This document shows, piece by piece, positions 10,499 to 44,413 of a stretch of 64,000 nucleotides of DNA; the first letter of the stretch is position 1; the number at the start of each line of letters is the position of its first letter. Below the pieces are notes generated by a model. It was not told the DNA's origin. It saw only the letters and a program-made list of their open reading frames with translations, and ran no database searches. Source of the DNA: Candidatus Levyibacteriota bacterium (GTDB lineage Bacteria > Patescibacteriota > Microgenomatia > Levybacterales > UBA12049); assembly GCA_041906785.1 (NCBI GenBank), contig JAYRIM010000017.1, forward strand, positions 210-64,209. Reading direction: 5' to 3'. A program made the position numbers and the translations under genes.

Positions 10499-12118
10499 TT
10501 ACGACTTCAGTACTACTTCAACCTTTATAGTATTTCCAGTAAGAACTTTACATGCTTCTTCGAGAATAGCACGTGTTTTTGCTTGATCTAACCGTTCTTT
10601 GTGAAACGTATAAGCAGTTTCAATAACTAATGTTTTTTTATCAAATTGTTTTATCATACATCCACGTAAAACCCCCGCAATAGTATGATTGTGCTTTTTC
10701 ATTTCTCCGATAAGCGCTTGCCAGAAGCTCCCCAACCATTCTGCTGTAATCTCTGTATTTGAAGTTTGTAATAAATCGATTGATGGTTTCACATCTCCTG
10801 CTTTTTGTTCATCTGTTGCTATTTTTTCTTCACCATATAACGCCTTTACCCGCGCCAAATCCCCAAGTTGTTTTCTCATGCTCGCCACTGTAACTCCGTT
10901 ACTAGAAGGTTTGCTAATAGTTACCTTCGTAGTCTCTGTAACTTCGACCTTTTCCGTTTCATGTAAAGTTGTATAATCAATAATTGCTAATTCTAAAGGC
11001 AGCTGCGGCACAACTGCATACTTCATCTCCTGTATCACTCTACCCAATAAATCAAGCAAAACTTTTATTTGTTCAATAGGTAATTCTGCATTCTGAATTC
11101 TAGATTCTGAACTCTGTAAGACTCCAACTTTTACTAATAACAGGCTATGCAACGTGTCGAACAACTGTTCTGTAAAAGTTTTTATGTCTACACCCTCAGC
11201 CACGACTTGTTCGATACGTTTTATTCCTTCTTTAGTATCCTTTTTCTGCAAACTTTCAATAATACTTAATACTTGATATTTGATACTTGATACCTTATAT
11301 CGTTTTTCTAGAAGATCAAGCGTTATATGTTTCTCTCCCATCGAGACTAATTCTTCGAGAATCTTATGAGCATCACGAAATCCTCCATCTGCCAAATGGA
11401 CAATTGATTCAATAGCAGCTTCATCAATATCCAATTTCTCATTCTCTGCAATTCGTTTGAAAGAGCGGGCAATCTCTTCTTTTGTGGCAGGAGAAAACTG
11501 TACTTGAAAACATCGAGAGATAATCGTTGCAGGTACCTTTTGCAATTCTGTCGTACAAAGAATAAACATCGCATGAGCTGGAGGCTCTTCTAGGGTTTTT
11601 AAAAGTGCATTAAATGCCTCAGTAGTAAGCATGTGAACTTCATCTATGATATATATTTTTTTTCGAGCTGAGAGTGGAGAGAGTTTTATTTTTTCCCGTA
11701 AATCCCGAATCTCATCAATCCCTCGATTCGATGCTGCATCTATTTCAAGAACATCCAAATTCGCACCGTTTGTTATAGAAATACATTGCTCACATGCATT
11801 ACACGGCTCCAATCGGTTGTCAGTTGTGGGTTGTGAGTTATCAGTTAACTCTTCAGAAGACTTTTTATTTTTGAGTTTTAATTTTGAGTTTTGACTTTTG
11901 AATTTTGAATTGTTTTCACAATTCACAACCTTCGCAACAATTCTCGCCGTAGATGTTTTTCCTAAACCTTTCGGACCAGTGAAGAGAAAAGCATGGGGTG
12001 GTTCCGGTAAAGATAAAACAGCTGTTAATGTCTTTCTAATATATTCACTATCTAAGTCATCTATTTTTTGTGGACGATATTTTCTGTAATAAACCATACT
12101 ATGAAAATTAAAAATCAA
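10499..12118 (-). CDS. dnaX: DNA polymerase III subunit gamma/tau
   Basis: Walker A (GPKGLGKTS), zinc module (C...PCNACEQC), IYIIDEVHML, SRC motif (SRCFQ). A roughly 33-aa low-complexity insert (NSKFKSQNSKLKLKNKKSSEE...) splits the Zn module. Confidence 0.9.
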   Translation of the reverse strand: MIFNFHSMVYYRKYRPQKIDDLDSEYIRKTLTAVLSLPEPPHAFLFTGPKGLGKTSTARIVAKVVNCENNSKFKSQNSKLKLKNKKSSEELTDNSQPTTDNRLEPCNACEQCISITNGANLDVLEIDAASNRGIDEIRDLREKIKLSPLSARKKIYIIDEVHMLTTEAFNALLKTLEEPPAHAMFILCTTELQKVPATIISRCFQVQFSPATKEEIARSFKRIAENEKLDIDEAAIESIVHLADGGFRDAHKILEELVSMGEKHITLDLLEKRYKVSSIKYQVLSIIESLQKKDTKEGIKRIEQVVAEGVDIKTFTEQLFDTLHSLLLVKVGVLQSSESRIQNAELPIEQIKVLLDLLGRVIQEMKYAVVPQLPLELAIIDYTTLHETEKVEVTETTKVTISKPSSNGVTVASMRKQLGDLARVKALYGEEKIATDEQKAGDVKPSIDLLQTSNTEITAEWLGSFWQALIGEMKKHNHTIAGVLRGCMIKQFDKKTLVIETAYTFHKERLDQAKTRAILEEACKVLTGNTIKVEVVLKS

Positions 12119-12591: not shown

Positions 12592-12691
12592 ATACGAATT
12601 TCTACAAACTAGATCCGAATTGTTCCGAATTATGAAATATTATTCGTAGCAATTAGGATTAAAAACATTTTTATTCGGATTTATTCGTAGC

Positions 12692-12874
12692 TTAGTGTGT
12701 TCGACGTTTTAAACGACGTAAATGCTGTTCTGCAAGCTTCTTTTTCTCTTGCTTGTTTAAATGAAAACGTCTATCTTTCACTTCTTGAATGATATTCGAC
12801 TCAACAACTTTACGAGTAAAGTTTTTAATAAGTTGGTCATCACTTTGGCCTGGTACTTTTTTAACAAAAACCAT
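12692..12874 (-). CDS. rpsU: 30S ribosomal protein bS21
   Basis: 60 aa, very basic, with the RRLKRR C-terminus. Strong SD (AAAGGAGGTG) 8 nt upstream. Confidence 0.85.
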   Translation of the reverse strand: MVFVKKVPGQSDDQLIKNFTRKVVESNIIQEVKDRRFHLNKQEKKKLAEQHLRRLKRRTH

Positions 12875-12894
12875 ATATTAATACACCTCCTTTA

Positions 12895-12978
12895 GGAAAG
12901 AACCAAAAGAGACAAAAGAGCCATAAGAGCCAGAGGTAATCACATTTGTCTCATTTGGCTCCTTGGTCTCCTCTGGAA
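12895..12978 (-). repeat. Imperfect hairpin made of 9-nt periodic CTC(N)T(N)TGG / CCA(N)A(N)GAG words in the rpsU 5' leader (copy 1 of 2)
   Basis: Left arm ccaaaagag-acaaaagag-ccataagag-ccagagg. Right arm catttgtct-catttggct-ccttggtct-cctctgg. The same word family recurs at 31741-31850 in the glyA leader. Confidence 0.5.
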
Positions 12979-13104
12979 CCTTTAACTTCCTATTTTACTC
13001 CAAATGCCCTATAGGTGCAAACTGAAGAACTACAAAAGACGCAAAGTTGCATAGTTACAAAGTTTCACAGTAAAAACTCTGCATCTATGAATCTTTGCAA
13101 CTCT

Positions 13105-13506
13105 TCAAGCACTCTGGAGCTTCTCTTTAATCTTCTCCAAGGATTCACGTAGCGGATGTTTAACAACACCTTGTAACGCATGACCTCCATCTGTCTCCCA
13201 GCGTGGAATAAGATGAATATGGAGATGAGGAACTCCTCGTTTTTCTTTATGATTAATACCTATTGTGATAGAATCACATTCTAAAGCTTTTTCTAACTTC
13301 TGTACGACGATTTGCGCAGTAGCCATCGCTTTTCCTAATTCTTCTTGTGTATACTCTAAAATATTATTTCCGTGCTTTTTAAGAATTACAAGAGTATGAC
13401 CTGGCGCTGAGGGTGTAACATCAAGAAATGCCATTGTCTCCTCTGTTTCATAAATCGAACTAACTGGTATTTCTTTTTTGACTATTTTACAAAATATATC
13501 ATCCAT
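13105..13506 (-). CDS. HIT family hydrolase (Hint-like)
   Basis: Histidine-triad motif HLHIHLIP. Confidence 0.85.
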   Translation of the reverse strand: MDDIFCKIVKKEIPVSSIYETEETMAFLDVTPSAPGHTLVILKKHGNNILEYTQEELGKAMATAQIVVQKLEKALECDSITIGINHKEKRGVPHLHIHLIPRWETDGGHALQGVVKHPLRESLEKIKEKLQSA

Positions 13507-13615
13507 AATATAAAATTGTTATATTGCTATAGTGTTTTATTGTTAAGTTAAATTCCTTCCCCCAAGAGAGAAGGTCAGGATGAGGAAACAATAGAGCAAT
13601 AAAACAATATAACAA
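13507..13615. repeat. Inverted-repeat pair of about 28 nt (TTGTTATATTGCTATAGTGTTTTATTG // CAATAGAGCAATAAAACAATATAACAA) enclosing a 45-nt spacer
   Basis: Visible by reverse-complement reading. Sits between the DHH phosphoesterase stop and the HIT start. Same architecture as the IR pairs that bound the four-helix-bundle cassettes, but with no cargo. Confidence 0.5.
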
Positions 13616-14635
13616 TTACTGATAGAGTTTTTCAAGCACTTTTATTATTTGATCTAAAGATAAAGTCGTGGGTACCATTTTCGGATTTTTAACACTTCCA
13701 TTTAATAGCATTTTTTTACTGACATGAAGAAACCAAGTCGCCCCAGCATCCATCTTTTTTAATTGCTCATACGCAAGAGTCAAATCAATTCCTTGTGAGA
13801 TTTCCGCCTTTGACCCCTTTGGCTCTTCTGTCTCATATATCCCCTCTGCTCTATTTGGAAGTGTTTTAATCGATACATGACCTCTTCTCGGATCTTTTCT
13901 AATAACTAATACATATCCTTTCTTCTGTGCTAACTTTACGACCGACTCATTCGCACTTAACAAACCTATTGCTTTTCCATACTTTGTCTTAAATTCAATA
14001 GCATTTCCTGCTTCTTCTCCGTCAATTTTTGATTTTTGCTCTCGGCCTGAGCTCGAGCCGAAGGCATTTTTAATTTTTAATTCTCTTTCTGCCCATACTT
14101 TATTTTCAAAGTATGATAATAAATAATCTAAATTCGTACAGCCGAATTCTACATAATAGTCATCCTCCCCAGGTTTTTTATACTGTAACCCTTCGTTAAT
14201 ACCGAAAAGTGAAAAATCATGGTAATCAGCATCTGCTTGGGGACGAAAAACTTCTTGGAAATGGTCATACGCTACGACAAGGGATACAATTCGTGAAATT
14301 GCTTCTACTGCTTGCTCTTTTAATGGCTGTTCTGATACCTGACGCTGGCTTTGGACGAAATCCCAAGCACGCTTAGCACCGCAAGTGTTTTGATCAGGTG
14401 TTTGATGATGATCCAATGGTCCTAGACCAGTGTCTACATGGATAATCTCTGTATTCCCAATAGTAAGTACAGGCTCGGATTCAAATTCGGGATGATTTTT
14501 AACTCTATCGCTTCGCAGACCAGCAGGTACAAATTCTATATCTGCCTTTTCCCAGCCAGGTAAGAAACGTTTTAATACCCAAACTGATGTAATCGCATCA
14601 AGGTCTGGCGACATATGAGTGACAATAATTTTCAT
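13616..14635 (-). CDS. DHH-family phosphoesterase (NrnA-like)
   Basis: N-terminal HMSPDLDAITS (DHH motif I/II) and GLGPLDHHQ (DHH motif III). Confidence 0.75.
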   Translation of the reverse strand: MKIIVTHMSPDLDAITSVWVLKRFLPGWEKADIEFVPAGLRSDRVKNHPEFESEPVLTIGNTEIIHVDTGLGPLDHHQTPDQNTCGAKRAWDFVQSQRQVSEQPLKEQAVEAISRIVSLVVAYDHFQEVFRPQADADYHDFSLFGINEGLQYKKPGEDDYYVEFGCTNLDYLLSYFENKVWAERELKIKNAFGSSSGREQKSKIDGEEAGNAIEFKTKYGKAIGLLSANESVVKLAQKKGYVLVIRKDPRRGHVSIKTLPNRAEGIYETEEPKGSKAEISQGIDLTLAYEQLKKMDAGATWFLHVSKKMLLNGSVKNPKMVPTTLSLDQIIKVLEKLYQ

Positions 14636-18565: not shown

Positions 18566-20323
18566 TCAAGAGCTCATCTTCTTTAATTCTTCAATTGCTT
18601 CAGAGAGTGTAAGAAGTTTCGTATTGCTTTCCCTTCTTACTTTCCATTCAACTTTATCTTGCGTTTTAGTACTGATCACCAATCTAACAGGAATACCTAT
18701 CAAATCAGCATCTGCAAATTTTTCTCCAGCGCCGACATTCTCTCTATCATCATACAAAACCTCAATCCCAGCAGCTTGTAACTTTTCATAAATATCTTCT
18801 GTTTCAGATTTGAGATTTGAATATTGAGTTTTGAGATTTATCAAATGAACCTGGTATGGCGCAACTGTTTCCGGCCAGATTATTCCTCGATCATCATGGA
18901 ATTTCTCTACAATAACGCCCATTAAACGTGAAGGTCCTATTCCATATGAACCCATATATACTTCTTTTTTCTCTCCATTTTCGTCTGTATAGTAATAATT
19001 AATTGCTTTTGTAAATTTCGTATTTAAAGGGAAAATATTACCAACTTCTGCCGCACGGAAAACCTCATACCTTTCACCTGTTTCAGGATATATGTCGCCA
19101 TCTTTTGCAATTTTAAAATCATAAAATTTTTCAGGAAGCTGGATATCTCGACCCCAATTTACGTTAACCGTATGATAATCTGTTTTGTTTGCACCACATT
19201 CGAAATTTTTACGGTTCGCTGTAGACTCATCAAAAAATACTTTAACATCTGAAGAAAGATTTAAAACGCCTGCATACCCTACTTCAGCACCTGTTACTTT
19301 TTTAACAACATCTGCAGAAGCCAATTTGATCGCTTTACATCCAATAATTTTAATTAATTTTTCTTCATTAATATCGTATCCTCCTCGAACAGCAGCCGCG
19401 ACAACATTACCCGTATCTGTCTCAAACAGTAACGTCTTAGTAGTTTTTTCAACAGGGATTTTTAGAAAAGCTGCAAGTTCTTCAACACCCACAATCCCTA
19501 CGCCTAACACATCTTCTCTATCCTTCATTTCTTCATCAGTATCATTAAGAGCCGGTGCCTGAGAAGGAGCAATCTCTCTATTAAAAGCTATGTTTTTTGA
19601 TTTTACATAGAAAACAGTATCTTCACCCGTTTCACAACGAGTTTGAAATTCATGTGAGAAGTTTTTCGTAAAATCTCCTCCGGATGCTAACGTTATAAAT
19701 GTATCCTTACCTATACCAACACGACGGAATACGTTCATATACACTTCTTTCGCTTTTTCATAATAATCTAATAAATCTTCCTCAGACGTATGGAAACTAT
19801 ATAAATCTTTCATACGGAACTCTCGACCGCGCATTAAACCTGATTTAGCGCGTGCTTCATTTCGGAATTTAGTCTGGATTTGATAAAAAGCGAACGGAAA
19901 ATCTTTATAACTTGTATTAAACTCTTTTGCCAAAGGAGTTACCATGTCTTCATGTGTACAACTCAGAATATATTCATTTGTGTTTTTCGATTGGGAAAGT
20001 TTATTCGCACCTGATGTTTTCATTAAAACGTCAACAGTTTCCAACCGTCCTGTTTGCTCCCATATTTCCTTAGGCGCAAGTGACGTCATGAGAATTTCAG
20101 TACCGATCTTATCCATTTCTTCACGAACGATTTGTTCAATTTTATTTAAAACGCGCAATCCCAGATGAAGAAATGTATAAACACCAGCCATTTCTTGGTG
20201 AATAAATCCAGACTTCTGCAATAATGTAGCATTTATAGACTCGAATTCTTTTGCGTTTTTTCTCGTTTTTATATACAGTTTCGAATATCTCATATGAATA
20301 ATTTCTTGTGTTAAGTATAGCAA
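18566..20323 (-). CDS. proS: Prolyl-tRNA synthetase (bacterial type with INS editing domain)
   Basis: Class II motifs. Editing-domain signatures (KTLLFETD, GAEVGYAGV). C-terminal anticodon-binding domain. The true start is probably MRYSK at about 20293. Confidence 0.95.
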   Translation of the reverse strand: MLYLTQEIIHMRYSKLYIKTRKNAKEFESINATLLQKSGFIHQEMAGVYTFLHLGLRVLNKIEQIVREEMDKIGTEILMTSLAPKEIWEQTGRLETVDVLMKTSGANKLSQSKNTNEYILSCTHEDMVTPLAKEFNTSYKDFPFAFYQIQTKFRNEARAKSGLMRGREFRMKDLYSFHTSEEDLLDYYEKAKEVYMNVFRRVGIGKDTFITLASGGDFTKNFSHEFQTRCETGEDTVFYVKSKNIAFNREIAPSQAPALNDTDEEMKDREDVLGVGIVGVEELAAFLKIPVEKTTKTLLFETDTGNVVAAAVRGGYDINEEKLIKIIGCKAIKLASADVVKKVTGAEVGYAGVLNLSSDVKVFFDESTANRKNFECGANKTDYHTVNVNWGRDIQLPEKFYDFKIAKDGDIYPETGERYEVFRAAEVGNIFPLNTKFTKAINYYYTDENGEKKEVYMGSYGIGPSRLMGVIVEKFHDDRGIIWPETVAPYQVHLINLKTQYSNLKSETEDIYEKLQAAGIEVLYDDRENVGAGEKFADADLIGIPVRLVISTKTQDKVEWKVRRESNTKLLTLSEAIEELKKMSS

Positions 20324-20766
20324 GGCTCTTCTGCAATAACAATTGGTTCTTCTCTTCGTTGAAATTGATGGATAACAGCATCAGTAAAAATAACAATCTC
20401 TACTCCATCACGAATTTGCTGCTTTCCCATTTTTCGTTCTTGTCCTTCTTCTGTTACGAAAGCCGTGACAGGAATTCTTCGATTATTTCTATGCTGTCTC
20501 CCTCCTAATACTCTCTGTAAGATAGTATTTTGACCAAAATCTATCCTTACTTCCTGACCAGTTCCATCAGAATTCGCAGGTGCAAAGGCTAAATTGATAA
20601 AACCATTTCCTGTTTCATGTTTTCCTGCTACGTCAGGAAGTTTTGCAATTGTATATATTCCTTCTGTAGTACCATTCTTTGAGAAGGTATGAATATCCAA
20701 ACCTTTTTTTGCAAGGAGATCTTCAGCTTTTATTCCAGTAATCTTTATTTCAGTCGTCATATGCAC
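20311..20766 (-). CDS. Hypothetical 151-aa protein immediately upstream of and overlapping proS
   Basis: Protein-like composition. There is a weak N-terminal resemblance (LLAKKGLDIHTF) to YbaK/ProX deacylases, but the GGxSPxG motif is absent. Left unassigned. Confidence 0.4.
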   Translation of the reverse strand: MHMTTEIKITGIKAEDLLAKKGLDIHTFSKNGTTEGIYTIAKLPDVAGKHETGNGFINLAFAPANSDGTGQEVRIDFGQNTILQRVLGGRQHRNNRRIPVTAFVTEEGQERKMGKQQIRDGVEIVIFTDAVIHQFQRREEPIVIAEEPCYT

Positions 20767-20810
20767 AAAAAAACCGCCCTTAATCCCGATCTCATCGGAA
20801 CAAGGACGGA
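20767..20810 (-). terminator. Intrinsic-terminator-like hairpin plus U7 tract abutting the start codon of the 20311..20766 ORF
   Basis: On the minus strand, ccgtcctt-[gttccgatgagatcgggatt]-aagggcgg is followed by ttttttt, then gtgcat-ATG. Confidence 0.5.
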
Positions 20811-21112
20811 AATAATTCTGTAACTCAAATTTTTGACTTTTAACTTTTGAGCTTTGAATTAATTCGTGGTACCACCTTGCTTTCGCTTGCTACAAAAAAT
20901 CCACCTTTCGGTGGAACAACAGAACTATAGCAATTGCTTATTTCTGCGCTCCGTTGCCGACACGCTTTATCGTATTTCTTGTCCTCCGTAGTTTTAACGA
21001 AGGACGGATACGGTTGACTTCCGTATTGCTCATCGCAATCAGCTCATTTGGCGGGAAACCAAACTTCTTGTCCTCCAAAGCTTTAGCGAAGGAGGAATAA
21101 CGCTTTATTAAT

Positions 21113-21148
21113 GAATATAATAAAACAACTAGCTAGCCTTGTCAATAA
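21113..21148 (-). promoter_or_regulatory. Near-consensus sigma70-type promoter (TTGACA-N17-TATTAT) firing into the structured leader
   Basis: The minus-strand sequence is cttatTGACAaggctagctagttgtttTATTATattc, located just after the gnd stop. Confidence 0.5.
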
Positions 21149-21154
21149 GTTTTT

Positions 21155-29031: not shown

Positions 29032-29892
29032 TTAGCTATTCGCTTTTTTTGTGGTTGTCTTTTCTGCCTTTTTCTCTTCAGTCTTTTCTGTCTCCTTTTT
29101 CGCTTTTCCCTTTGATACTTTTGATACCTCTGATACTTTTCCCTCTTCTTCTTTCTTCGCCTCTGGCTCCTCCGTCCCTTTCGCTGCCTTCTTCTTTCCT
29201 TCAATCCATGCATCGACAATATATGATGTAATCAATTTAATACTCCCAGCCGCATCGTCATTTGCTGGAATTGGATATGTAATAGGATCTGGATCTGCAT
29301 TTGTATCAACCATTCCAACAACTGGAATGCTCATTGCATTCGCTTCTCTAACAGCTAAATCCTCCATATGAGTATCAATGATAAAAAGAACATCTGGCAT
29401 CTTCGCCATATCTTGCGTACCGCCATAATAGATATTCAATTTTTGTTTTTCTTTCTCCCATAGTGAAACTTCTTTTTTCGTATATTTCGCTTTTTCAGTG
29501 TCATTTTGCAAACGTTGTGTTAAATCTTTTAATTTTTTATAGTTTTTAAGCACTTCGCCAGCATTTGTTAATGTACCGCCTATCCATCGTGCGGTAACTG
29601 TATATATATTATTTACTCCTTCATCTTGTGCACGTTTCAATTCCTCTTTCACAACAATTGCAGCTTGGCGTTTCGTTCCTAAAAGAAGAATCGTACTTTC
29701 TGGTTTTTCAGCAATTTCCTTAATAAAAGCAGCAGCCTTCTCTAAGCCTTCTTTTGTTTTCTCAAGGTCAATAATGTGGATATTATCACGGGCCTCAAAT
29801 ACGAAATCACGAGATTTCGGATTCTGTCGTGTTACTTGGTGACCAAAATGGCAACCAGCTTCAAGAAGTTCTTCAAGTGTTATTGTTCTCAT
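29032..29892 (-). CDS. rpsB: 30S ribosomal protein uS2 with a K/E-rich C-terminal tail
   Basis: GCHFGHQ, and LLLGTKRQA. The tail is encoded by tandem gatacttttgatac repeats. Confidence 0.95.
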   Translation of the reverse strand: MRTITLEELLEAGCHFGHQVTRQNPKSRDFVFEARDNIHIIDLEKTKEGLEKAAAFIKEIAEKPESTILLLGTKRQAAIVVKEELKRAQDEGVNNIYTVTARWIGGTLTNAGEVLKNYKKLKDLTQRLQNDTEKAKYTKKEVSLWEKEKQKLNIYYGGTQDMAKMPDVLFIIDTHMEDLAVREANAMSIPVVGMVDTNADPDPITYPIPANDDAAGSIKLITSYIVDAWIEGKKKAAKGTEEPEAKKEEEGKVSEVSKVSKGKAKKETEKTEEKKAEKTTTKKANS

Positions 29893-30453: not shown

Positions 30454-31716
30454 CTATTTAATTCCTGGTACTGGAAACTGAAGAGAAAACGTCTTTACTT
30501 CTTTCGCAACTTTTTTTAATTCTTTCTCACTATCTTTACTCATGAGTGCTTTATCGATTAATGCAGCAACCGTTTCCATATCCCTTACTTTCATGCCACG
30601 TGTCGTAATAGCTGGGGTACCTAAGCGAATCCCTGAAGGATCAAGAGGTTTTCTCGGATCAAAAGGAATCATATTTTTATTAATCGATATACCAACTTGC
30701 TCTAAAACATGTTCTCCTTGTTTACCAGTAATTTCCTTACTGCCATAAAGATCAACCAGCATTAAGTGATTATCTGTCCCACCTGAAATGATTCTATATC
30801 CTCTTTTTTCTAATGCCTGTGCCAATGCTTGTGCATTCTTTATTACCTGAGCAGCATATTTCTTAAAAGATGGTTTTAATGCCTCACCAAAAGAGACAGC
30901 TTTCGCAGCATTAATATGGTCATGAGGTCCCCCTTGCACTCCTGGAAAAACAGCTTTCGCTATAGCAGGACCGAACTGTTCTTTCGCCATGATCATCGCA
31001 CCACGTGGACCACGTAGTGTCTTATGAGTTGTAGTTGAAACAACATCAAAATACGGAACTGGACTTTCTAATTGTCCTCCAGCTATTAAGCCAGCAATAT
31101 GAGCAATGTCTGCAAAAGTATATGCACCTATCTTATCCGCTATCTTTTTAAAGCGCTTCCAATCCATATTCCTACTGTATGCAGAAAACCCTGCAAGAAT
31201 CATTTTCGGTTTTTCTTTTAATGCGATTTTTTCAACTTCATCCATGTCGATAATCTCAGTTTTCTTATCAGCAAAATATGGAATTATTGTGTAAAGAATT
31301 CCTGAGAAGTTAAGTGGATGACCATGTGATAAATGTCCTCCTTGATCGAGAGAAAAACCTAACACTTTATCACCAGGTTTTAAAAGGGCCATATAAACCG
31401 CTAGATTCGCTGGGCTTCCTGACAGAGGCTGAACATTTACGTATTCAGCGCCAAAAAGTTTTTTCGCCCGTTCAATAGCGAGAGACTCTGCTTCATCTAT
31501 TACTTGATTTCCACCATAATATCGTTTTCCGGGATAACCTTCTGAATATTTGTTTGTTAAAACAGTACCCATTGCTTCTAAAACTGCTGGAGATACATAA
31601 TTTTCTGAAGCGATGAGTTCAATTCCTTCTTTTTGTCGTTTTTCTTCTGCTTTTACAATCGCGTATAACCGAGGATCTTCTTTTTTGAGGTACATCATTG
31701 TAGAGTACAATAGCAA
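30454..31716 (-). CDS. glyA: Serine hydroxymethyltransferase
   Basis: PLP lysine motif TTHKTLRGPRG, and ELIASEN. Confidence 0.95.
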   Translation of the reverse strand: MLLYSTMMYLKKEDPRLYAIVKAEEKRQKEGIELIASENYVSPAVLEAMGTVLTNKYSEGYPGKRYYGGNQVIDEAESLAIERAKKLFGAEYVNVQPLSGSPANLAVYMALLKPGDKVLGFSLDQGGHLSHGHPLNFSGILYTIIPYFADKKTEIIDMDEVEKIALKEKPKMILAGFSAYSRNMDWKRFKKIADKIGAYTFADIAHIAGLIAGGQLESPVPYFDVVSTTTHKTLRGPRGAMIMAKEQFGPAIAKAVFPGVQGGPHDHINAAKAVSFGEALKPSFKKYAAQVIKNAQALAQALEKRGYRIISGGTDNHLMLVDLYGSKEITGKQGEHVLEQVGISINKNMIPFDPRKPLDPSGIRLGTPAITTRGMKVRDMETVAALIDKALMSKDSEKELKKVAKEVKTFSLQFPVPGIK

Positions 31717-31740
31717 ATGTATTTTAAGAATTCAATAGGG

Positions 31741-31850
31741 TAACCCAGGGAAGGGAAAGAAGAGACAGATGAGCCAAATGGGTCAAAGGTCATATTATAG
31801 TTTGCTTATCACCTTTGTCTCCTCTGGCTCCTTGGTTCCTTTTGACTCTT
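31741..31850 (-). repeat. Second copy of the 9-nt-periodic hairpin element, in the glyA 5' leader
   Basis: gagacagatgagccaaatgg ... cacctttgtctcctctggctccttggttcc. Shares the tggctccttggt and tctcctctgg words with 12940-12975. Confidence 0.5.
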
Positions 31851-31854
31851 CGAT

Positions 31855-32910
31855 TTATCTATACCTCATGTGCGGAGTACCTTCGAGGTGTGCTGCTTGC
31901 GAAACATGATTGAAAATAGCTTTTCCCTGGAATTCCTTAATCGTTCTCGCACCTGCATAACTCATGCTGCTTCGTAGTCCACCGGATAATTCTGCTAGCA
32001 CTTCTGATACAGGACCTTTCTCTTTAATTGGAACTTCTACTCCTTCAGCAGCACGAAATTCATTTACTTGGGTTTTATTGTCTTTCATGTAGCTTGCACT
32101 AGCTTGTCCACGATAAACCAAGTTTCCTTTTTCGTCTCTTATCTTTGGAGCTTCAGCAGTCCCTGCGAAGAGAGACCCAATCATGACTAAATCTGCTCCA
32201 GCAGCGATTGCTTTCGCTACATCTTTCGGACCTTTTATTCCTCCATCTGCGATGACAAACAAGCCGCTGGCAACTGTATCGAACACTGCAGCTAACTGAG
32301 GCACTCCTACTCCAGCTACTTCACGAGTTATACAAACAGCGCCACCGCCAACACCGACTCGAGCGAAGCGTAATCCGAGTGACTTATATGACATTGCTTG
32401 TGTATATGTCGCGATATTTCCTGTAATCACATATAAATCGAGTTTCTCCTTAATTTCTACTGCAGTTTGTTTTACTTTCTCCATTCCTCCATGAGCCACA
32501 TCAAGAAGAATCATTTTCGCACCTTTCTTTTTCAACATCTCTGCATCATGTAGTGCATTTTTCATTCCGATTGCATAAAGACAAGGAACATCGTCTGCTG
32601 ATAAACGCGCACAAATTTCTAGTGAAGTATCCATTTCGCCCGCACGTGCACGAGGTAAACAGCCTATCCCACCCTCTTTTGCTAAAGCTCGAATGAGCTC
32701 TTCACTACCGACGGTATCCATGGGTGCGTTAATAATTGGAAGTGTTAATTTGTATGGACCAAATTGTACTGAAGTATCTATTTCTTTACGGGAACTGACA
32801 TCACTATCTTGAGTGATCAATGTTACGTCATCGTAGGTAATAGAAGAAGCAGTTGGCAGTTTTTCCCACGGTATTGTTTTTCCTAATCCTTGATAAAATA
32901 AACGAGACAT
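31855..32910 (-). CDS. guaB: IMP dehydrogenase / GMP reductase family protein (no CBS pair)
   Basis: TIM-barrel motifs ([10 protein letters not shown]), catalytic Cys loop ([11 protein letters not shown]), and GQASASYM. 351 aa, which is GuaC/IMPDH-delta-CBS-like. Confidence 0.75.
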
Positions 32911-43760: not shown

Positions 43761-44351
43761 ATGGTTACAAGAGCTATGTCGAAAAATGTATTGCTTCTGT
43801 TACTTGGACTCTTTCTTATTACTGTTGTTCTCCTTATCGTGACATTACAACGAGGAACGCCTGAACCATCATTAAAGCCACAATTGACAAAAAAGCCAAG
43901 CGGGACAATAGTGCCAGCAAATGCAAAATCAATATTAACATTACAACCAAATCCAGTTACTCTGAATGCAAACGGTAGTGGCTCAATAAATGTGGAATTG
44001 AATACAAATGAAAATGCAGTAACAGCTGTACAGTTAGAGTTAGCATACGATCCAGCTGTGTTATCAAACGTTACTATCGCTGCAGGCCCATTTCTAGGAA
44101 AACCAATAGAACTTTTAAAAAACATAGATAAATCAAAAGGCACAGTCACACTCATGTTAGGAATTACACCTGCACAGGATCCGGTCCAAGGTAAAGGAAT
44201 CGTCGCAACCATTGAATTTATGAGACTCGGAGCGACTACAGAAAAAACGACTGAATTCCAATTACTCAATTCTAGTCTTGTAACTGCATCTGGAATAGAT
44301 AATAGTGTCCTCCGCTCAGCTAAAGGAACCACAGTCGTCCTCGAACAATAA
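43752..44351 (+). CDS. Cohesin-like domain protein (membrane-anchored)
   Basis: N-terminal TM. VQLELAYDPAVLSNVTIAAGPFL resembles the type-I cohesin strand pattern (V-x-hydrophobic-x-YDP-x-hydrophobic-L). Confidence 0.5.
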   Translation: MYIMVTRAMSKNVLLLLLGLFLITVVLLIVTLQRGTPEPSLKPQLTKKPSGTIVPANAKSILTLQPNPVTLNANGSGSINVELNTNENAVTAVQLELAYDPAVLSNVTIAAGPFLGKPIELLKNIDKSKGTVTLMLGITPAQDPVQGKGIVATIEFMRLGATTEKTTEFQLLNSSLVTASGIDNSVLRSAKGTTVVLEQ

Positions 44352-44413
44352 CTAAAATAACTATTTTCCTCTTCTGTCTCCTCTGTCCCATCTGGCTTTT
44401 TGGACCCTTTAAG

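Follow-up and report, generated by a model that had tools for sequence, protein, structure and literature searches.

A 9-nucleotide-periodic hairpin next to rpsU and glyA is probably a dispersed palindromic repeat of a Patescibacteria-like lineage

The 64-kb window analyzed here (the whole stretch from position 210 to 64,209 of contig JAYRIM010000017.1, with coordinates counted from its first letter) raises the question of why two minus-strand genes, rpsU and glyA, are each preceded by an imperfect hairpin built from similar 9-nucleotide words. An initial annotation had read these hairpins, here called e1 (at rpsU) and e2 (at glyA), as a translational-control or sequestration structure in two leaders or, alternatively, as a small dispersed repeat element. 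The second reading is the one that held, with further copies found both in the window and, in frame, in metagenomes. We put the probability at roughly 0.6 that e1 and e2 are full copies, and two further loci, e3 and e4, partial copies, of a lineage-specific dispersed palindromic repeat of ~75 to 100 nucleotides (nt). A shared translational switch of rpsU and glyA is not supported. All copy counts for this genome refer to the 64-kb window, which has a G+C content of 37% and whose genes have their closest homologues in uncultured Patescibacteria (candidate phyla radiation [CPR]); its HIT protein has homologues that carry the label Saccharimonadales.

Both hairpins are imperfect and 75 to 95 nt in size, and the pairing of inverted 9-nt word arrays over ~35 bp that had been described was recovered at e1 as two 35-nt arms (Table 1). 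A purine-rich arm of 9-nt words (CCANANGAG) is followed by a short loop and then by a pyrimidine-rich arm (CTCNTNTGG), and the words tggctccttggt and tctcctctgg are indeed common to e1 and e2. Each arm consists of three to five degenerate words in tandem, of the form GRG-NCA-AAK on the purine side and its complement on the pyrimidine side, and the purine arm invariably comes first, with the pyrimidine arm after the loop. The arms of e1 and e2 are direct 9-nt arrays, purine or pyrimidine rich, none of which is self-complementary. Identity at a lag of 9 nt was 0.53 to 0.69, versus 0.28 to 0.37 for shuffled sequence (each arm, p ≤ 0.007); lag 18 gave a further peak. The pattern CTCNTNTGGNTCNTNTGG, with at most two mismatches allowed, matched the window 13 times where about 1.2 matches (1.19) were expected. 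The e1 sequence is identical in an independent Logan assembly. Both hairpins fold stably on the mRNA (minus) strand, at −38 to −40.5 kcal/mol for e1 (z −3.1 to −3.9) and −35.9 kcal/mol for e2 (z −2.8 to −3.4). For e2 the plus strand folded similarly; for e1 a direct comparison gave −38.0 kcal/mol (z −3.9) on the minus strand versus −27.1 kcal/mol (z −1.6) on the plus strand. Hairpins as such are widespread in this window, with 7 of the 30 intergenic regions reaching z values below −4. What is special about e1 and e2 is their shared 9-nt word structure, not the possession of a hairpin.

The two loci that had been described are not the only ones. A weight matrix for the word arrays picked out five loci in the window: e1, e2, the partial copies e3 and e4, and a weak trace in the tail of rpsB, whose membership in the family is doubtful. 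The same matrix gave one weak match, in the orthologue of the rpsB tail, in ~67 kb from five relatives and no match in 170 kb of unrelated loci. The copy e4 is an exact in-frame insertion that is missing from both orthologues (L014:9000-9920 and L016:1818-2816), and it is identical to an e2 arm at 26 of 28 bases. Its flanks, GAGGGG and AAGGGG, only hint at a target-site duplication. The half element e3 is intergenic, with the stop codon of a cohesin-domain gene at 44351 on one side and, on the other, the probable start codon (ATG, 44468) of a CBM60/VWA/dockerin protein; it forms no hairpin (z +0.15).

Five relatives with retained synteny and proteins 45 to 85% identical (L002, L014, L016, L096, and L097) were available for comparison. 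The orthologous rpsU leaders (all but L002) and the region upstream of glyA (L002) are unrelated in sequence to the window and have no 9-nt words, so the conservation proposed as a check was not seen. A scan of the genome collection with the G6PD protein returned a single close relative (L002), the remaining matches being to Acidobacteria or Actinobacteria. The contig that holds L002 and L014, CAZEJU010000012.1, is titled "uncultured Gammaproteobacteria bacterium" yet is syntenic with the Patescibacteria-like window at 45 to 85% protein identity, and that label looks wrong.

Related copies were sought more widely with a 26-nt degenerate pattern, TYTGNCYCNTNTGGCTCNTYKGTYYC, derived from five arms of e1, e2, and e4. 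In the window it matched five times at three loci, against 0 in shuffles, the pattern having been derived from these same arms. Elsewhere it matched 77 metagenome stretches and 2 viral ones. Most of the metagenome matches are single arrays of the pyrimidine type that lie antisense to low-complexity coding sequence. Viral contigs were rejected as carriers, both matches being low-complexity coding sequence and not of the hairpin type. Among 63 non-redundant metagenome matches, a strong purine array lay at most 110 nt upstream in 6 and downstream in 0. A two-arm rule applied to 731 kb likewise found hairpin-type arrangements only in the order purine, loop, pyrimidine, the reverse order occurring 0 times. 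Pooling both scans gives about nine independent purine-then-pyrimidine cases.

Most of the metagenome copies with this arrangement lie in frame within genes (Table 1). All coding copies have one codon phase, GGN-ACN-AAG-GAG-CCA-AAG ... TTT-GGC-TCT-TCT-GGC, and a reading of e1 in that phase meets no stop codon in either arm. An nhmmer search with a profile made from seven metagenome copies only (alignment A5, 65% mean column identity) found e1 at E=4e-15, e2 at 7e-13, e3 at 8e-4, and e4 at 1.6e-3, and nothing in the relatives. When the profile was limited to the purine arm and loop, to which the search pattern contributed nothing, e1, e2, and e4 again ranked first (E values of 1e-3 to 2e-2). 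The arms of the seven metagenome copies pair in shifted 9-nt registers, and RNAalifold accordingly gave only a weak consensus (11 pairs, −2.75 kcal/mol). At the protein level, a profile of nine element peptides gave one match (E=2.9), and the virtual peptide of e1 had 0 matches among 1.84 billion representatives.

For the carrier of the topA copy, the nearest named TopA homologues are from Patescibacteria and Microgenomates. Among close homologues the topA loop is empty in some lineages and holds the element or other insertions elsewhere, and the loop between EAIAWH and RITFHEIT is a hot spot of lineage-specific insertions in Patescibacteria. In L098:3001-5130 and L100:1001-3109 it contains a different 9-nt-periodic palindrome, made of GTACCACGR and YCGTGGTAC words (−31 and −42 kcal/mol), and in L099:3001-5040 yet another insertion. 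As a separate observation, L023:384-1606 carries two adjacent type IV pilin-like genes with unusually long prepilin leader peptides made of the element; both arms are present in the first gene and only the pyrimidine arm in the second, each time directly before the G|FTLIEL cleavage motif.

Such palindromes might also arise repeatedly and locally, by 9-nt slippage together with intrastrand template switching that perfects quasi-palindromes, the similar words then reflecting convergent codon and composition constraints. Unit numbers do vary between copies, the arms pair in shifted registers, a related organism has the different palindrome in the same topA loop, and the relatives have other hairpins of similar length at the sites of e1 and e2. 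In addition, 26 in-frame indels between the window and L002, L014, or L016 fold slightly better than controls (median z of −0.61 versus 0.04; Mann-Whitney p=0.009). Several such indels are small perfect palindromes in the orthologues (ATTCCGGCGGACGCCGGAAT in L016 dnaX, CCAACCTCCCAGGTTGG in L002 proS, and AATGGCAGGCCATT in L016 cysS). However, four loci within 64 kb share words that five relatives essentially lack, where universal constraints predict otherwise; the intergenic e1 and e2, free of coding constraint, share both words and codon phase with the coding copies; and the strict polarity, about 9 to 0, is unexpected from symmetric template switching. The near identity of e2 and e4 likewise argues against this origin, and we regard it as quite unlikely. 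We infer that the copies arise by copying or mobilization rather than locally.

At rpsU, e1 lies between a HIT-family gene (13105-13506, minus) and rpsU itself, which encodes ribosomal protein bS21. The hexamers and spacing of the predicted rpsU promoter are kept upstream of rpsU in L014, L016, L096, and L097, and, given this predicted conserved promoter upstream, e1 is part of the rpsU 5' untranslated region (UTR) and inside the rpsU transcript. It begins within about 10 nt of the predicted mRNA 5' end and stops 3 nt short of the Shine-Dalgarno (SD) sequence. The initial annotation had placed both hairpins in 5' UTRs; for e1 this agrees with the predicted promoter, whereas e2 lies upstream of a putative glyA promoter. 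Sequestration of the SD by the hairpin, the more specific claim, fares worse. The rpsU SD and ATG are unpaired in the predicted minimum-free-energy and centroid folds, and an SD-sequestering operator was also rejected for glyA, which has no SD or leader downstream of its putative promoter. Moreover, e2 would be outside the glyA mRNA, the orthologous sites of relatives lack the element, and copies occur in coding sequence. At gathering thresholds, Rfam matched one tRNA only in the whole window. The glyA leader had been suggested to carry a riboswitch such as ZTP, but cmscan detected there neither ZTP (RF01750) nor another cis-regulatory family. Permissive Rfam scans of 12600-13200 and 31600-31950 returned only microRNA-precursor-like matches of 12 to 27 bits, versus gathering thresholds of 34 to 150; these matches are generic hairpins.

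It remains to ask whether e1 is a dedicated cis-regulatory RNA of rpsU, be it a stabilizing stem-loop close to the mRNA 5' end, a site for RNase III, or a structure that responds to bS21, with the words incidental and e2 unrelated or secondary. We consider this unlikely. Its position between promoter and SD and its more stable fold on the mRNA strand would suit such a role, the rpsU leaders of L014, L016, L096, and L097 each have a hairpin of their own just 5' of the SD, and in Flavobacteria bS21 is known to control its own synthesis through the translation-initiation region of rpsU (PMC9976891). Those leader hairpins share with e1 only the presence of some hairpin, though. Their sequences are unrelated and cannot be aligned, which precludes a covariation analysis, and two of the four have weak z values (L014, −2.8; L016, −1.1; L096, −1.8; L097, −1.9). 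A conserved ribosomal-protein leader RNA was rejected on the same unrelated sequences. The SD and start codon are left free in the predicted folds, hairpins are common in co-directional intergenic regions of the window, and copies of the element are also found ahead of a promoter (e2), within genes (e4 and the metagenome copies), and in half form (e3).

The flavobacterial case resembles rpsU here in the gene and in its strong leader SD. It differs in that the mechanism consists of sequestration of the ribosomal anti-SD by bS21 plus the SD itself, with no upstream hairpin (PMC9976891), whereas here there is a hairpin upstream and the SD is left free; that mechanism needs the anti-SD sequestration of Bacteroidia ribosomes. 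An upstream open reading frame (ORF) or N-terminal extension of bS21 was also rejected: the e1 frame is open for 38 codons (KVPEETKEPNETNVITSGSYGSFVSFGSFLKEVY) but is bounded by stops and has no ATG, and the rpsU leaders of the relatives contain no ORF comparable to it. The leader hairpin may still have some role at rpsU. As a copy of the dispersed element, e1 would give the rpsU mRNA a stable stem-loop that could alter stability or processing without occluding the SD, and any such effect on rpsU would be secondary.

Upstream of glyA is an IMPDH/GMP-reductase-like gene (31855-32910, minus). The element e2 begins 3 nt past the stop codon of that gene (31855) and stops 12 nt short of the −35 box of the putative glyA promoter. 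The purine arm continues the frame of the upstream gene beyond its stop codon. The promoter candidate comes from a block conserved between the window (CCCTATTGAAWTC...TATYGTACTCTACARTG; in longer form CCCTATTGAATTC...TATTGTACTCTACAATG) and L002 (CCCTATTGAAATC...TATCGTACTCTACAGTG), which reads TTGAAW-17-TATYGT; in a consensus promoter scan it falls below threshold. With only 7 nt between the end of this putative promoter and the ATG at 31699, and with no SD, glyA looks leaderless and e2 appears to lie outside its mRNA, so that e2 would sit in the 3' region of the upstream gene. The TTG start listed for glyA (31716) falls within the putative promoter. Inside e2, at 31794-31821 (minus), is a sigma-70-like site, GAGACA-16-TATAAT, which has 10 of 12 matches and a −10 box that falls within the loop of the hairpin. 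Were this site active, the glyA mRNA would have a leader of 88 nt that includes the pyrimidine arm; chance alone predicts ~0.6 sites of this kind in the region.

The placement of e2 directly behind a stop codon and ahead of the putative glyA promoter also fits a terminator or 3'-end-stabilizing hairpin of the IMPDH/GMP-reductase-like gene, possibly with other copies acting likewise, a role that is compatible with the other readings. A weak hairpin (z −1.1) occupies the corresponding position in L002, and hairpins separate most co-directional gene pairs in the window. The terminator scan, however, found no intrinsic terminator at e1 or e2, and the e2 stem is rich in A/U and G:U pairs and is followed by UCUUCUUUCCC, with no U run, while a canonical terminator with a GC stem and U7 exists elsewhere in the window, near 20770. 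Nor would a terminator explain e1, e3, and e4. We judge such a role very unlikely.

A dispersed palindromic element remains our preferred reading, and several observations weigh against it. Only two full and two partial copies were seen within 64 kb, and the window yielded neither a transposase nor a terminal signature nor a clear target-site duplication. The fold of e1 is 11 kcal/mol better on the mRNA strand, which would fit selection on RNA structure, and all five rpsU leaders, that of the window and those of L014, L016, L096, and L097, have a hairpin just 5' of the SD. The unrelated hairpins of similar length that relatives carry at the e1 and e2 sites look more like a replacement than a simple insertion. 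Because the search pattern for the metagenome loci came from e1, e2, and e4, the similarity of their pyrimidine arms is partly by construction. Finally, the similarity is largely that of a degenerate 9-nt consensus, and convergence of low-complexity sequence may contribute. Set against these points are the common anatomy, its recurrence at several loci, its absence at orthologous sites, and the in-frame coding copies, all of which were observed directly. The element family would have spread recently in this lineage, probably within Patescibacteria (CPR), given that relatives at roughly 70 to 80% protein identity are free of it. Related copies do occur in other uncultured bacteria, and for one of these the nearest named relatives are Patescibacteria. 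A 9-nt period equals three codons, and one frame per orientation encodes a hydrophilic stretch rich in K, E, T, P, and G followed by a flexible stretch rich in G, S, and F. With this period and composition, copies could survive in intergenic DNA, in UTRs, and in frame in permissive loops and termini of proteins.

Table 1. Coordinates of e1 to e4, of associated features in the window, and of copies at metagenome loci
Feature	Location	Strand	Basis or description
e1, full element (purine arm, loop, pyrimidine arm)	12894..12991	-	inverted repeat, fold, periodicity, profile match
e1 core arms	12903-12937 and 12942-12976		35 nt each, 4 nt apart, 74% complementary
rpsU (ribosomal protein bS21), downstream of e1	12692..12874	-	Pfam Ribosomal_S21, E=6.9e-8
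Predicted rpsU promoter, TTGCAC (13020-13015), 17-nt spacer, TAAAAT (12997-12992)	12992..13020	-	promoter scan and conservation
rpsU SD, GGAGGTG	12884..12890	-	sequence and folds; 3' of the hairpin
e2, full element (purine arm, loop, pyrimidine arm)	31759..31851	-	fold, word arrays on both strands, profile match
Putative glyA promoter, TTGAAT (31735-31730), 17-nt spacer, TATTGT (31712-31707)	31707..31735	-	conservation only
e3, half element (pyrimidine arm only)	44360..44404	+	pattern and weight-matrix matches
e4, 30-nt in-frame insertion (IYETEEPKGS), purine-arm words	13811..13840	-	DHH-family gene 13616-14635; word array 13805-13849
Weak word trace, K/E-rich C-terminal tail of rpsB (doubtful member)	29074..29133	+	weight-matrix score 20-23; nhmmer E=9.3, not significant
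topA copy	L056		between Toprim and Topoisom_bac domains; EEAKGTKEPKGTKVKKTFGSSGSFGTSGSS; peptide includes GTKEPKGTKVKKTFGSSGSFGTSG
folD copy	L048		in frame
rplL copy	L051/L059		N-terminal extension
Type IV pilin-like gene copy	L023		prepilin leader, MRSKGDKGIKGDKGSKGKFFPFGAFGSSGTFGTSQFG|FTLIELL
476-aa ORF copy	L040/L029/L085 and L073		same site in two diverged orthologues
ORF copy	L052		C-terminal end
dnaX half copy	L046		

In behavior, the closest precedent appears to be the Rickettsia palindromic elements (RPEs), short dispersed palindromic repeats in the small genome of a host-dependent bacterium, found both between genes and in frame in unrelated housekeeping genes (Ogata et al. 2000, summarized in PMC10969869). 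Like RPEs, the copies described here are both intergenic and in frame in housekeeping genes, where they add a peptide segment, and no mobilizing enzyme is known for either. Several unlinked loci in one genome carry the element, with e1 and e2 as full and e3 and e4 as partial copies within 64 kb, and in-frame insertions absent from orthologues are represented by e4 and by the topA loop insertion, which is present in only some close homologues. RPEs differ in being ~100 to 150 bp long, in belonging to Rickettsia-restricted sequence families, and in having no reported 9-nt periodicity; the present elements are 75 to 100 nt long, consist of 9-nt words in a fixed order, and occur in Patescibacteria-type genomes. 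The likeness is one of functional class; with host phylum, length, and word structure all different, no relationship in sequence is expected, and membership in the RPE sequence families is not claimed.

Other repeat classes are less similar. REPINs also have two inverted halves, a short spacer, and a hairpin of ~100 nt, and can be non-autonomous with lineage-specific proliferation (PMC3116915, PMC3337134), but the repetitive extragenic palindromic (REP) half is itself an imperfect palindrome of 20 to 40 nt, in contrast to the direct 9-nt arrays here. Membership in the REPIN or REP-RAYT systems (RAYT, REP-associated tyrosine transposase) was rejected because the arms are not self-complementary. 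REPINs are, moreover, extragenic and tied to a single-copy RAYT gene flanked by its REPs, whereas the present copies also occur in genes. A search of the 64-kb window by tblastn with the Y1_Tnp protein of L100 found no Y1 transposase. That protein is encoded at L100:3110-4000, beside topA, by a Y1 (IS200/RAYT-like, PF01797) transposase gene with the same REP-like hairpin, CCAAGGTGGCGTATCTGTTCCACCTCCGAGGTGGAATGCTATTGRCACCTTGG, on both sides, and homologues of it also occur in L018 and L089. A link between the element and this Y1/RAYT gene was rejected, the flanking hairpin being a different one and the window lacking a homologue. In terms of miniature inverted-repeat transposable elements, the entire element is an inverted repeat, and the e4 flanks only suggest a duplication, at the one bounded insertion. 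Palindromic amphipathic repeat coding elements (PARCELs) share DNA-level dyad symmetry in coding sequence, translation, and patchy distribution; they consist, however, of a 25-residue amphipathic domain repeated in tandem within ORFs of unassigned function, often membrane proteins, unlike the single hairpin-sized insertions in housekeeping genes and UTRs seen here. The coding palindromes of Nematomorpha mitochondria are also inverted repeats in protein genes with both arms translated, but they are mitochondrial, up to 284 bp long, perfect, and without short periodic words (PMC6649704).

Several other features were noted in and around the window. Between the DHH-family and HIT genes, 13507-13615 is an AT-rich, near-perfect palindrome of ~100 nt (TTGTTATATTGTTTTATTGC...GCAATATAACAA, z −5.6), a hairpin type unlike that of e1 and e2. 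A motif, AGTTGCAAAG(A/T)T..., followed by CATAGAT/GCAGAG-type words, is shared by 13060-13104, L014:10403-10445, and L002:2760-2795. It directly follows a stop codon each time, although the gene differs: that of HIT in the window and in L014, and that of the IMPDH-like gene in L002. It may represent a further small repeat or mark 3' ends, and the window copy folds into a hairpin upstream of the rpsU promoter. The DHH-family gene has a lineage-specific in-frame insertion of 23 aa (IKNAFGSSSGREQKSKIDGEEAG) at 14012-14080, with a small GC-rich hairpin (TCGGCTCGAGCTCAGGCCGA), and dnaX has one of 28 low-complexity aa (FKSQNSKLKLKNKKSSEELTDNSQPTTD) at 11819-11902, with a repeat of ~7 nt (CAAAAxT). 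A 388-nt intergenic region at 20767-21154 (minus), upstream of the ORF at 20311-20766 and proS, is predicted to be strongly structured (−120 kcal/mol, z −5.7). Within it are a T-box-like GGTGGTACCACG motif, GGAGGACAAGAA in two copies, and a canonical terminator (GGGCGGTTTTTTT). Rfam had no match to this region even at E ≤ 1, and it may represent a divergent T-box leader or some other non-coding RNA.

The copies in this window and in metagenomes suggest a broader proposal, which we put forward tentatively and at less than even odds. Patescibacteria (CPR) might host an undescribed class of 9-nt-periodic, purine-then-pyrimidine palindromic elements in UTRs, in intergenic DNA, and in frame in loops and termini of TopA, FolD, L7/L12, DnaX, and pilin leaders, translated as K/E/T/P/G-rich plus G/S/F-rich segments. 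Such a class would be a counterpart of RPEs with lineage-specific word families and hairpin-based spread. Our literature searches, which had limited coverage and are not proof of novelty, found no description of such elements in CPR. One practical consequence is that 5'-UTR hairpins like e1 can pass wrongly for dedicated riboregulators. If these elements are as widespread as the metagenome examples suggest, they would be the second clear case, after Rickettsia, of palindromes written into essential protein genes of reduced genomes. The palindromes would then be selfish or mutationally generated, and they would help explain the lineage-specific insertions in CPR proteins, the frequent long hairpins in CPR intergenic regions, and the rapid turnover of CPR leader sequences.

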